Assembly (NCBI GenBank): GCA_029557635.1
Contig: JAKQIG010000287.1
Span: forward strand, 1 to 25,601
DNA length: 25,601 nt
Source of the DNA: a bacterium
GTDB taxonomy: Bacteria; Muiribacteriota; UBA9980
Direction of reading: 5' to 3'
Numbering within the stretch: position 1 is the stretch's first letter; every line of letters starts with the position of its first letter. The notes below the pieces were generated by a model. The model was given only the letters and a program-made list of their open reading frames with translations, was not told the origin of the DNA and searched no databases. Positions 18,862-23,865 of the stretch are shown here, piece after piece. Position numbers and translations under genes: made by a program.

Positions 18862-21351
18862 TTATTTTTTGGGCCCGAACCCTATGTTTTTTACGACATT
18901 TTCGAGCCCGCTGCCCTTCAGCAGATTGCATACCACGTCAACCACGCTCTGGCCGCCGAGTATGGCCAGAGGCGACATGCTTTCGGCCAGTTTAGACGCG
19001 AGGGCCTTGTCTGAAAACGCCTGAATAGCCGCTATCAGATCGGGTTTTATAGCTTCGGCCTTTTTCACGAGCGCCTCCGCCTCCGCCTTCAAGCGCGAAA
19101 GTTCGAGCTCCATCTTGAGCTGATTTATTTCCTGCTCCTGCAGGGACCTTTGCTTTTCGCGGCCGAGCTCTTCGCCCGCTATCCTGGATCTTGCGACCTG
19201 ATTATTGAATTCGCTCTCGAGCTTTTTGGCCTCGGATTGAAAATTAATCATAAGGTTCGCAAGCTGGTATTCGAGTTCCTTTTCCGATTCGCAGATGCCG
19301 AAATCCCATATTTTGCGCTTGGTGACCGATTTTTCTTCGGCCTCTTTCCTGGCGCAGTCTTCTATTTTCTGGGTCATTTCCAGTTTTTTCTGGGCGAGCT
19401 CCATCTGTATTTCGTTATCTATTATGCAACGCTGGGTTTGAAACAAAAGCCTTCTTATTTCTTCGTCTTTGATGGTTACGCCGAGGATTTCAACGTCGTA
19501 AACCTTCATTCCGTTTTCGTCAAAAAAGCGGCCGGGACGCTCTTTTGTTTTTTCGTCCTGAACGCCCAGTATAGTGTCGCGGATTATCTCGACATATTTT
19601 TTGTAAAATTCGTCCGTCGAATAAAGCTTGGCCGATTTTTTCATCAGCGAACGCAGATGGTCGCATAAAAACTGCACGTAATTTTCCACGTTGAACCATA
19701 TGTTGGGGTCTCCCTCGAAATTGACCCTGTAGGACATTTTGATATCGACTTTGCAAAGGTCGCGGGTTTCCACTTCCACCAGGTCGGACACCTTATTATT
19801 CATGACCCTTAAGTAAACCGTTTCTATGACGCTGTCCGAAGTTTTTGGCGTTTTAGTTGAAAGACACACCGGCTCGAGAGTTTCATCGTACTTTAAAAGG
19901 TAAGGGCGGGGCCCCGCCACTACTTTTCTTTCCCCGGTCTTGCTGACGACCAATACCGCGTATCCCGTCCATATTTTAATGAGAACCGCACCGTCATACT
20001 TGGTGTCGAGCGTTATCATACGCGGCTTGGTGAACGCCGTTTTTCTGGTGAAATCGTCGCCGACTCTAAATTCGGCGGCTTCGTATTCGCGCTTTTCACG
20101 CAAAGGCGCCGGAGCGGCCGCAAGAAAGTTCGCGGCGGTCGAATCCGAAATAAATTTATCGCTCGTTTTTTGAGTCAAAAGTCTTAAGTTACGGTTATAT
20201 TCGAGCGCCTCTTCGTTGCCCGGATACCACAGCGTAACGCTTCTATCGTCAAGGACGCGCCTGACTATAACCTGCCGGCGCGGGTCGGGAAGGAGCATGC
20301 AAGGACCGCTCACCAGTTCTATCTTTCCTGAAATGCGGTCCAGGACGTAACGGCCTTCGCCTTCCGGCACGGCTACCGCGTAATGTATCTCCTGATCGCC
20401 GTATTTTACGAGCGCATGCTCCGCACGGGGATAGTAAATCATCATTTCACGGCCGGTTATGAACATTTCGTCGCCCGGTTTGCGCTCCAAGCCCTTTTCG
20501 TCTTTATAAGGGGCTATGACTTTTATATAAATTCCGCTTATTTCGTTAAGCTCTATGGCTTTAAACTTTTTCGACCCGCTCTTGCCTTCGACGAATATTT
20601 CGGTCGGCTCTGGAAAAACCACTTTAGGGCCCTGCACATATCTTTTATTGCCGGATTCGTCGAGCAGTATGCAATATTCAAGGCGCTCCAGAGTGACGGC
20701 GCTGCGGACGTATTTTCCGCCCGCGTCGGGCAGGACTTCTATACCGGTGGGAGGTATGTAAAAGGAAACCTCGGTGCCTTTAATAATCAAAAGCTTACCC
20801 ATGGTCAGTTCCGACGTGCTGATAATGGAATCGCGTCCGGAAACGCTCTGCTGAGCTTCGCCCGATTCATCGGACGATTTTTGAAGCTTTACTACGGCCT
20901 TGCCCCAATTCTGCCTGGCCGCTTCCTCGTTATAGACCCGGACCAGCAGATACTGGTTCGACCGAAGATGATGGCCTTCTATGGTGGTTGCGATCTGCGT
21001 TGGCCAGAGAGGAAAAGTTATGGGGCCCGCGATATTTATTTTTCTTCCGGACATTAATTTTGGAAGGTTGTTCGCGCCCTGTTTTGGGTGACTGTCGTCT
21101 TCGCGCTCAGAAGGGTTTTCAAGCACCACGTAGGAGCCTTCGTTTGCGGAAACAAACTGCTGCACCGCTTTTTCTATAGTGCTCGGCTTGAAGCTGCGCG
21201 ACTGTGGATCGAAAGTGACCGGCTCGTCCGTGCCGGAAAGGCTCGTCTTGTGCGGGCCCACATAAACTATTATATTGCCCTTGGTTTTATCCAGAATAAA
21301 AGCTGATTGAATAGCGTCCAGTACAAGTTCCCTTTCTCTTCTCTCGTCCAT
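18862..21351 (-). CDS. Major Vault Protein (MVP) homolog: vault-repeat domains, an SPFH-like shoulder domain and a C-terminal coiled-coil cap helix.
   Basis: The listed ORF extends to a TTG at 21369, but the ATG at 21351 (MDERRERELVL...) has an AAGGAG SD 6 nt upstream. The N-terminus aligns with eukaryotic MVP (ours FILDKTKGNIIVYVGPHKT; MVP HVLDQNSNVSRVEVGPKTY, from memory). Repeated ~55-aa beta modules (YVLDRISGKIELVSGPCMLLPDP...) resemble MVP repeats. The C-terminus has a band-7-like region, then a long EA/K-rich helix and tail (MELELSRLKAEAEALVKK...; MVP LELEVSKAQQLAEVEVKK...). Confidence 0.6.
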   Translation of the reverse strand: MDERRERELVLDAIQSAFILDKTKGNIIVYVGPHKTSLSGTDEPVTFDPQSRSFKPSTIEKAVQQFVSANEGSYVVLENPSEREDDSHPKQGANNLPKLMSGRKINIAGPITFPLWPTQIATTIEGHHLRSNQYLLVRVYNEEAARQNWGKAVVKLQKSSDESGEAQQSVSGRDSIISTSELTMGKLLIIKGTEVSFYIPPTGIEVLPDAGGKYVRSAVTLERLEYCILLDESGNKRYVQGPKVVFPEPTEIFVEGKSGSKKFKAIELNEISGIYIKVIAPYKDEKGLERKPGDEMFITGREMMIYYPRAEHALVKYGDQEIHYAVAVPEGEGRYVLDRISGKIELVSGPCMLLPDPRRQVIVRRVLDDRSVTLWYPGNEEALEYNRNLRLLTQKTSDKFISDSTAANFLAAAPAPLREKREYEAAEFRVGDDFTRKTAFTKPRMITLDTKYDGAVLIKIWTGYAVLVVSKTGERKVVAGPRPYLLKYDETLEPVCLSTKTPKTSDSVIETVYLRVMNNKVSDLVEVETRDLCKVDIKMSYRVNFEGDPNIWFNVENYVQFLCDHLRSLMKKSAKLYSTDEFYKKYVEIIRDTILGVQDEKTKERPGRFFDENGMKVYDVEILGVTIKDEEIRRLLFQTQRCIIDNEIQMELAQKKLEMTQKIEDCARKEAEEKSVTKRKIWDFGICESEKELEYQLANLMINFQSEAKKLESEFNNQVARSRIAGEELGREKQRSLQEQEINQLKMELELSRLKAEAEALVKKAEAIKPDLIAAIQAFSDKALASKLAESMSPLAILGGQSVVDVVCNLLKGSGLENVVKNIGFGPKK

Positions 21352-21532
21352 GTTCGCTCCTTTGCGCAATAATTATTATTTAAAAATTAAAGAACTTTCT
21401 TTTTAAACAATGGGCCGGCATTTAACGCCTGAACCATAACGTAATAATTCTATACCAAACCGAAGTAAAATTCAATATAAAAATGAGATAAATTTAGATA
21501 TCTTAAAAATTTGAACCGGGCGGCAATAATGA

Positions 21533-21562
21533 ATTGATACTTTTAAATTATTCTGGTATAAT
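21533..21562 (+). promoter_or_regulatory. Sigma-70-type promoter candidate for the 21591 gene.
   Basis: -35 TTGATA (21533-21538), 18-nt spacer, extended -10 TGgTATAAT (21554-21562). AGGTG SD 5 nt before the ATG. Confidence 0.4.
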
Positions 21563-22562: not shown

Positions 22563-22602
22563 CCTGTTTTAAAAACGATGTTATTTTTATATAAGGTGAT
22601 TA

Positions 22603-23865
22603 ATGGGCGCTGATATCAACGCAAAACTCAATAATAATTACGACCGGCTGATCGCGGCCGTTTTGTCGGGCGATAAAGCGGGCCTCGTAAAGATATTATC
22701 TTCTGAAAAATCGCTGGCCGGCTGGTCTGACAAAGCCGGAACCACGTTACTGATGATAGCGTCCATGGCCTCTAACGCAGAAATAATCGACTGCCTGATA
22801 AATCACGGCGCAAAAATCGATAAAACCGACGATTCCGGAAACAGCGCCCTTATGTACGCTATCTCATATTCAAACGTACAGGCGGCGGCGGCTCTTATAA
22901 AAAGAGGCGCGAGCGTTTATTTAAAGGACCGCTCCGGCCTGGCCGCGGCGGAACTGGCAGAATTATACTCCCAGAAAGAAATCGCCGCGCTTATAGCCGG
23001 AAAAGCTTCGAAAACGCATACTCCCCTCAAACCGGAAGGCGGAAGATATATTTGCACTTCCGAAGCCAGGCAAACTTCGAGCTTTATAGCCGGCGTATTT
23101 TCATTTATCATAACCATACTAAAATACGGTTTCGTAATGCTCCTTTTTTTGATAGCGATCGGCATATACGTTTCAAAAAATGAAGAGGCGCTCCAGCCTT
23201 ATCCGTCCAGGCAGAGCGCCAAAAAAAGCCAGAGCGCCCAACCTAAAAAAACTCCGGCGCGTCCGGCCGCAAAAAAAAGCAGACTGGCCGTCAATTCAAT
23301 GATAATACAATATATCCAAAATTCAGACGTTAAATCGGCTCAAAACCTTATAGAATCCGGAATTTTCGACCTCAACGCAATGGACTCTTCGTCCATGACT
23401 CCTTTAATGCATTCAGCCAAAAAGGGCTTTACCGACCTGGTGAAGCTTTTGATCGACAAAGGCGCCTCAATGGAATCCGTGGATATCGCGGGAAATACGG
23501 CCCTGTTTTACGCCATAGACGGCGGTTTCACAGGAGTGGTCCAGATGCTTCTGGAAAAAGGCGCGAACCACGAACACTCTAATTTCAGCAATTTAAAGCC
23601 GCTGATCTACGCTTCGAAGAACGGTAACTGCGACATCATAAGGCTTCTTATAAACCGCGGCGCCAATGTGAACGCCGAAACCGGGTACCGCGACACCGCG
23701 CTTACCTGGGCGGTATATAACGGCCATTACGAAGCGGTGAAAATCCTTATAGAATCCGGCGCGGACATTAACATTACCACTCTCCACGGCGATACGCCGT
23801 TTACCCTTGCGCAAAAACAGGGCCACGATAAGATTTATGAACTTTTAAGCCGGGCTAAAAAATGA
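22603..23865 (+). CDS. Ankyrin-repeat protein with a central hydrophobic hairpin and Lys-rich linker.
   Basis: AGGTGA SD. N-terminal ANK repeats (TLLMIAS...IIDCLINHGAKID; GNSALMYAIS...AALIKRGASV), a 30-aa hydrophobic segment (FIAGVFSFIITILKYGFVMLLFLIAIGIYV), a K-rich segment (KKSQSAQPKKTPARPAAKKSR), then four or more ANK repeats (TPLMHSAKKGFTDLVKLLIDKGA, GNTALFYAIDGG, LKPLIYASKNGNCDIIRLLINRGANVNA, DTALTWAVYNGHYEAVKILIESGADIN, GDTPFTLAQKQGH). Confidence 0.75.
   Translation: MGADINAKLNNNYDRLIAAVLSGDKAGLVKILSSEKSLAGWSDKAGTTLLMIASMASNAEIIDCLINHGAKIDKTDDSGNSALMYAISYSNVQAAAALIKRGASVYLKDRSGLAAAELAELYSQKEIAALIAGKASKTHTPLKPEGGRYICTSEARQTSSFIAGVFSFIITILKYGFVMLLFLIAIGIYVSKNEEALQPYPSRQSAKKSQSAQPKKTPARPAAKKSRLAVNSMIIQYIQNSDVKSAQNLIESGIFDLNAMDSSSMTPLMHSAKKGFTDLVKLLIDKGASMESVDIAGNTALFYAIDGGFTGVVQMLLEKGANHEHSNFSNLKPLIYASKNGNCDIIRLLINRGANVNAETGYRDTALTWAVYNGHYEAVKILIESGADINITTLHGDTPFTLAQKQGHDKIYELLSRAKK

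Follow-up and report, generated by a model that had tools for sequence, protein, structure and literature searches.

The stretch analysed here, called the window, comprises 25,601 nucleotides of a bacterial chromosome (contig JAKQIG010000287.1). It carries three neighbouring genes, which encode a major vault protein (MVP) homologue, a Tim44-like membrane protein with an S/Y/G/R-rich stretch, and a membrane-anchored ankyrin-repeat protein. Pfam matches, AlphaFold2 (AF2) models and hydropathy bear out these three open reading frames (ORFs) and their domains at the coordinates given by a first-pass annotation, which had described a cluster typical of eukaryotes. That description is overstated, as each of the three domain families is well represented in bacteria. 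Comparison with related genomes supports another reading, to which a probability of about 0.8 can be assigned: the cluster consists of two independent units that are neighbours in this lineage only, a stand-alone bacterial MVP gene and a Tim44-ankyrin operon.

The MVP homologue occupies positions 18862..21351 on the reverse strand and encodes 829 amino acids (aa). The ORF list begins the gene at a TTG codon at 21369 (18862-21369), but the ATG at 21351 is favoured. It is the most likely start because AAAGGAG lies 5 nt upstream, the homologue consensus MxExxRERDLVL fits it, and public gene calls agree. A Pfam scan detects MVP_shoulder (PF11978) at E 2.2e-26, with 92.7 bits against a cut-off of 25 and profile positions 2-118 of 118 covered, while a Vault_3 match remains below threshold (24.1 versus 28.8 bits). 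Residues 473-816 are colinear with residues 476-827 of the solved rat and human MVPs (single-sequence E 1.5e-16), and a weaker colinear alignment in the repeat region pairs aa 219-355 with residues 274-409 of the solved proteins. A profile built from 24 MVP sequences matches the PDB MVPs at E 3.3e-25. The layout that emerges is an N-terminal β-rich repeat region, a shoulder at aa ~518-629, a cap helix of ~137 residues at aa 629-765, and a C-terminal tail. The AF2 model, computed with 24 sequences, places the shoulder and the long helix 629-765 at a predicted local distance difference test score (pLDDT) of ~75-88; the N-terminal 520 residues are β-rich with a mean pLDDT of 52, falling below 50 in the repeat region. 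By homology, the protein probably self-assembles, by way of shoulder and cap helix, into an oligomer shaped like a ring or shell.

A comparison with eukaryotic MVP (rat and human; PDB 4hl8, 4v60 and 7pkr) reveals a similar length (829 versus 861-893 aa) and a common order of repeat region, SPFH-like shoulder (PMC3762200) and long cap helix. In contrast, the N-terminal repeats of the window protein are barely detected by Pfam models derived from eukaryotes. Like the bacterial homologues described so far, it is only distant kin of eukaryotic MVP, Daly et al. giving ~25% identity for their bacterial set (PMC3762200). Furthermore, and unlike the eukaryotic vault, the window genes include no TEP1/TROVE or PARP4 (VIT-VWA) domains, and no part of the window matches vault RNA in Rfam.

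Descriptions of MVP homologues in bacteria date back to 2013 (Daly et al. 2013, PMC3762200; Sokolskyi 2019, bioRxiv 10.1101/872010), and by homology the window gene is a further member of this group, although its source, Candidatus Wallbacteria, lies outside the gliding-bacteria taxa of those papers. The group is far more numerous and conserved than the published handful would suggest: of 8,000 candidates scored, 6,702 were significant, and identity across phyla is ~55%. The best 120 homologues are 51-98% identical to the window protein, and all those with a named taxon come from bacterial metagenome-assembled genomes (MAGs), with Eremiobacterota/Xenobiia, Riflebacteria, Ozemobacteraceae, Wallbacteria, Desulfobacterales, Melainabacteria and Magnetoovum represented. 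Homologues from MAGs labelled as different phyla are 53-57% identical over 99% of their length, and the 24-sequence alignment holds 217 invariant columns. Conservation of this unusual degree suggests either that the structure is strongly constrained or that the gene often passes from phylum to phylum. Literature searches returned no experimental work on bacterial MVP and no report of particle formation. Full-length homologues also occur on eight IMG/VR contigs of 13-142 kb (L019-L026), 43-57% identical over the best segment and viral by the IMG/VR classification alone. These contigs fit a 2023 preprint that includes a report of phage MVPs (10.1101/2023.11.10.566534).

The Tim44-like protein (323 aa) is encoded at 21591..22562 on the forward strand, divergently from MVP. 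Hydropathy marks aa 14-40 as a first transmembrane segment (TM1) or signal anchor, with AEA|RAG at its end, and aa 102-133 as a second (TM2). Between them lies the S/Y/G/R-rich stretch (aa 43-104; 21717-21902), and a G/S-rich linker (aa 128-183) leads to the C-terminal Tim44-like, or NTF2-like, domain (aa 184-323; 22140-22559). Pfam Tim44 (PF04280) is matched at E 1.4e-11, with 45.2 bits against a gathering score of 29.6, and AF2 models this domain with pLDDT mostly 92-97. Foldseek ranks the C-terminal domains of human and yeast Tim44 first among its PDB matches (2cw9 and 3qk9, E ~1e-6), ahead of ARC6/PARC6 and the mitoribosomal protein mL45; an NTF2-like fold is common to the window protein, Tim44 and mL45. 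The shared fold apart, the window protein differs from mitochondrial Tim44. It lacks the N-terminal part that binds Hsp70 and Tim23, and it is predicted to be integral to the membrane through its two TM segments, whereas the mitochondrial protein is peripheral. Its closest homologues are bacterial, from Wallbacteria and Planctomycetes together with entries named by JGI as 'predicted lipid-binding transport protein (Tim44 family)'. A further difference is the pairing of its gene with an ankyrin gene.

The S/Y/G/R-rich stretch had been likened in the first-pass annotation to FUS-type prion-like domains and regarded as a fusion to the Tim44-like domain. Its 62 residues are 94% S/Y/G/R, and both it and the FUS-type domains are S/Y/G-rich with interspersed arginine. 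The likeness ends there, as the stretch is short, lies between two hydrophobic segments directly after AEARAG, and shows no Q/N enrichment, and the protein has no RNA-binding domain. Its bacterial homologues have the same order of TM segment, S/Y/G/R-rich stretch, TM segment, G-rich linker and Tim44 domain. Among homologues in which both hydrophobic segments are cleanly delimited, the loop between TM1 and TM2 measures 27-76 residues and is 59-97% S/Y/G/R down to ~25% identity, typically opening with ARAG(R/K)SGGSS. The position of the stretch is therefore conserved across a bacterial membrane-protein family, which makes it a family-specific hallmark loop and not a fused eukaryotic module. Regarding its topology, the positive N-terminal charges and the AxA motif suggest that the loop is exported, while its nine arginines argue against export.

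The ankyrin gene begins 40 nt after the Tim44-like gene (22603..23865, forward strand) and encodes 420 aa. Between about three N-terminal and about five C-terminal ANK repeats lie, in this order, a central hydrophobic segment (aa 160-193; 23080-23181) and a K/P/S/Q-rich linker. Pfam Ank families match at E 1e-32 to 1e-49, the best being Ank_2 (E 1.9e-49), and Ank itself is matched in six stretches. The Legionella Dot/Icm ankyrin effector families of NCBIfam are also hit, in the repeats only and at 71-115 bits against cut-offs of 500-800 (for example 109 versus 600). Canonical ANK repeats are what the window protein shares with the Legionella and Coxiella effectors; it differs from them in its central predicted membrane anchor, in having no recognisable secretion signal, and in the conserved operon partners of its gene in related MAGs. 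It is best described as a regular ANK protein with an unusual, predicted central membrane anchor.

The spacer between the MVP and Tim44-like genes (21352..21590) is divergent and AT-rich, at 27.6% GC, as had been noted, but measures 239 nt instead of the 220 nt first given. On its Tim44 side lies a strong promoter-like sequence, a sigma-70-like site with an extended −10 element (TTGATA, 17 nt, TG-TATAAT; 21534..21562, forward strand), which has 11 of 12 matches and stands 29 nt upstream of the Tim44-like start codon. The MVP side offers only a weak promoter-like match at 21475-21447 on the reverse strand. The segment TTGATAC...TATTCTGGTATAAT aligns between the window and four related loci (L004, L011, L027 and L028), so that the Tim44-proximal promoter is kept with or without MVP. 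The Tim44-adjacent part of the spacer is accordingly the predicted promoter of the Tim44-ankyrin operon.

Loci found through the Tim44-like protein provide the decisive comparison and define what is conserved around it. Its orthologues P0121 (56% identity, L027) and P0122 (48%, L028) retain the neighbourhood of the window without MVP. On one side stand LigT, a ~204-aa gene, two kinases and the tRNA pseudouridine synthase TruA; on the other stand Tim44, ankyrin (421 and 414 aa), EamA (L027 only), HAD, NfeD and a flotillin-like Band_7 gene. TruA is directly divergent from Tim44 in both loci, at a distance of 215-291 nt, and therefore marks the site that MVP occupies in the window. A more distant orthologue, P0127 (39%, L029), keeps Tim44, ankyrin (579 aa) and HAD in another upstream context, and P0129 (L030) is a Tim44-like gene with no ankyrin gene nearby. 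An end-to-end alignment of the four ankyrin proteins shows a common ANK-TM-linker-ANK layout, those of L027, L028 and L029 being 59, 38 and 33% identical to that of the window, and the gap between the Tim44 and ankyrin genes is 12-33 nt in these three loci. The HAD gene beside the pair is recognised in the same three loci by phmmer at E 1e-78 to 1e-87. EamA, present after ankyrin in the window and L027 and absent in L028 and L029, is thus a variable member of the block. Tim44-like and TM-ankyrin are, on these alignments, a conserved co-directional pair with its own conserved predicted promoter. More broadly, the comparisons show the conserved unit to be Tim44-like plus predicted TM-ankyrin, usually with a convergent HAD-IB gene, and near NfeD/flotillin in L027 and L028. 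Literature searches found nothing on the Tim44-ankyrin pair.

NfeD-like and ~500-aa Band_7/flotillin-like genes follow HAD at 3460-5736 of L005/L006, just past the right end of the window, and likewise at 12041-14198 of L027 and 11014-13139 of L028. The pair lies ~4 kb further on, so an SPFH scaffold system stands a few kb from MVP, itself a protein with an SPFH-like shoulder.

Seen from MVP, the picture is different. The MVP contexts come from twelve exact-protein look-ups, one scan of viral contigs and a single-sequence MVP scan of genome contigs, which returned four close loci; 16 of the loci are non-redundant, and 14 remain when the close clade is set aside. MVP stands next to the Tim44-like gene in L004 (97% MVP identity; from the same MAG as L001, likewise 97%) and in L011 (86%), and in no sampled relative whose MVP is less than 86% identical. 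Within L011, the truncated gene upstream of MVP translates to the same protein of TM segment, 'AEARAGRSGGSSSRSY' and TM segment. This locus also retains TruA, the kinases and LigT, so the MVP-Tim44 adjacency there reflects general collinearity. The conserved linkage that had been proposed as a check on the cluster thus extends, in the loci sampled, to these close relatives (97% and 86% MVP identity) and no further, an outcome that counts against a three-gene reading. At L002, likewise 86% identical in MVP, VWA and VIT-VWA genes replace TruA downstream, and the similarity to L011 is restricted to the MVP gene.

At 72-74% MVP identity (L003 and L012/L013), the gene upstream of MVP and divergent from it encodes either a membrane protein of 247 aa or a zinc-ribbon/peptidase-like protein of 470 aa, and no Tim44, ANK, TruA or HAD homologue lies within 8-10 kb of MVP. 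No Tim44-like gene stands near MVP in L014-L018 (54-57% identity) or in the IMG/VR loci L019-L026 (43-51% identity), which provide six non-redundant full contexts. Altogether, a Tim44-like gene within ~6-10 kb of MVP is found in none of the 14 other non-redundant contexts. When the unannotated MVP neighbours in L003, L012 and L014-L017 were checked for hidden Tim44 or ANK proteins, only the ANK protein of L016, which had been annotated before, matched; a later phmmer pass over the MVP neighbours revealed a small ANK protein in L017. One MAG, CAZKCG01, carries both units apart from each other: the Tim44-ankyrin pair of L029 lies on CAZKCG010000060 and an MVP gene of 72% identity (L003) on CAZKCG010000014, at least ~25 kb away as judged by contig positions. 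In the sampled contexts MVP stands as a gene independent of its neighbours, which differ between lineages.

The L002 locus also bears on possible vault partners. VIT and VWA are domains of the vault component PARP4. Directly 3' of MVP (2943-6744), L002 encodes a VWA protein of 348 aa and a VIT-VWA protein of 766 aa, with a weak match to vWA_Ro60. A PARP4-like partner of MVP was considered on this basis and dropped, as the arrangement is seen in one of the 16 contexts.

These comparisons present a model of two independent units, the MVP gene on one side and the Tim44-ankyrin operon on the other, which have become neighbours in this lineage. Under this model, MVP most likely moved into the TruA/Tim44 spacer in a recent ancestor of the genus-level clade that comprises the window and L011. 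The function of the operon can be sketched from homology: the Tim44-like NTF2-fold domain would dock at the membrane from the cytoplasmic side, in the manner of mitochondrial Tim44 and mL45, and partner proteins would be recruited by the ankyrin domains, the whole forming an inner-membrane scaffold. Four points weigh against the separation of the two units. The sampled MVP contexts are few (n = 14 non-redundant outside the close clade). Gain of MVP at the TruA/Tim44 site is preferred to its loss by an identity ranking and not by a tree. The adjacency of MVP and Tim44 is stable within the clade, and a lineage-specific functional link may lie behind it. Finally, two of the 14 contexts (L016 and L017) have an ANK gene no more than 6 kb from MVP, a count with no base rate for comparison, which leaves room for a loose MVP-ankyrin link.

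Such a link is the alternative that survives best, even if it is unlikely. It holds that MVP is recurrently associated with ankyrin proteins of any architecture, which would act as adaptors or cargo of MVP assemblies. All-against-all clustering of the ORFs within 6 kb of MVP in the 16 loci identified ANK as the sole recurrent family outside the collinear pair L005/L011, with members in three of the 16: in the window, in L016, where the gene adjoins MVP and is divergent from it, and in L017, at a distance of 4 kb. The three proteins are nevertheless different in architecture, that of L016 being soluble (385 aa) and that of L017 signal-anchored (219 aa), and they resemble one another at the repeat level only, with ~28% identity. 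Their positions and orientations also differ among the loci, and the ANK gene of the window is demonstrably tied to Tim44 and not to MVP.

The functional module proposed in the first-pass annotation holds for the Tim44-like and ankyrin genes, which form a conserved pair, and fails for MVP. It is very unlikely that all three cooperate, with the shell tied to a membrane scaffold and the genes co-regulated from the divergent spacer. In the window, as in the relatives with 86-97% MVP identity, MVP is the divergent neighbour of the pair, both partner proteins are predicted to be membrane-anchored, and the nearby NfeD/flotillin pair invites a connection with the SPFH-like shoulder of MVP (PMC3762200). 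Against these points, the Tim44-ankyrin block exists without MVP in L027, L028 and L029, MVP exists without Tim44 or TM-ankyrin in the 14 other contexts, CAZKCG01 carries the two units unlinked, and relatives without MVP at the site carry the Tim44 promoter too. An elaboration that joins this proposal to the preceding one is just as improbable: MVP, newly placed head-to-head with the Tim44/TM-ankyrin scaffold operon, would have become functionally coupled to it in a membrane-tethered vault-like assembly, with ankyrin proteins as recurrent adaptors of MVP shells.

Composition and homology bear on the remaining proposal, that of a foreign block. The MVP, Tim44-like and ankyrin genes have a GC content of 0.48-0.50 and a GC content at third codon positions (GC3) of 0.54-0.59, inside the range of the other 15 window genes (GC 0.36-0.53, GC3 0.42-0.67), and their codon-usage distances to the rest of the window are the lowest or nearly so. 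The comparison of GC and codon usage that had been suggested for these genes therefore counts against a transferred block. Of the traits expected of a genomic island, the window presents no deviant composition, no tRNA, and no integrase or transposase among its annotated genes. The best homologues of all three proteins are bacterial, at 40-98% identity, while the solved eukaryotic MVPs match at only E 1e-16. The source chromosome is bacterial as well: contigs of the MAG 'bacterium ADurb.Bin243', or Candidatus Wallbacteria bacterium, are identical to the window (GCA_022703765.1, 209-kb contig). By these measures, none of the three genes shows a sign of recent transfer from a eukaryote. A block taken from a eukaryote, or a host-associated lifestyle with effector-like ankyrin proteins, is therefore scarcely credible. 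Three points speak for it: the domains became known from eukaryotes first, repeats of the ankyrin protein match Legionella Dot/Icm effectors, and transfer from eukaryote to bacterium is a possibility that Daly et al. weighed for some bacterial MVPs (PMC3762200). Against it stand the nearest homologues, the composition and the Wallbacteria source; the effector scores are far under the curated cut-offs, and the ankyrin protein is predicted to be membrane-anchored and has orthologues in related MAGs.

What looks like a eukaryote-like island is, on the two-unit reading, a chance neighbourhood of ordinary bacterial genes and deserves little weight as a cluster. Its components have more to offer separately. 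A bacterial MVP with no fixed gene partners in the sampled contexts bears on what vault shells do and where they come from, while the Tim44-like/membrane-ankyrin/HAD block of Wallbacteria-like genomes offers a handle on the bacterial Tim44-like family.

The genes that flank the cluster are those of an ordinary bacterial chromosome. TruA (18029..18799, reverse strand; Pfam and NCBIfam) lies 62 nt 3' of MVP on the same strand. Beyond the ankyrin gene follow directly an EamA-family transporter (23906..24787, forward strand; Pfam) and then a HAD-IB family hydrolase (24799..25521, reverse strand; Pfam and NCBIfam), which is convergent with the Tim44-ankyrin operon. Elsewhere, the window encodes a sugar ABC transporter, an amylase-like enzyme, an FAD oxidase, LigT and two hybrid histidine kinases. 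These kinases (918 and 1072 aa) are arranged in tandem at 11865-17957 and contain PAS, HisKA, HATPase and receiver domains, one of them with an additional Hpt domain, and a separate 117-aa Hpt protein is encoded close by at 9247-9600. The kinase pair is kept downstream of TruA in L011, L027 and L028.

A last observation concerns the 1.1 kb between the ABC permease and the amylase-like gene (4938-6049), which has no credible ORF. Rfam and tRNA scans of the whole window return nothing, and this region gives no tRNA and, even at E 1, no match to Rfam. It contains an element of ~250-300 nt doubled head to tail, with 5270-5515 and 5517-5815 being 71-85% identical in three blocks, and a 37-nt piece of it recurs at 5925-5961. 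Candidate identities for the doubled element are a non-coding RNA, a regulatory sequence and a small mobile element.

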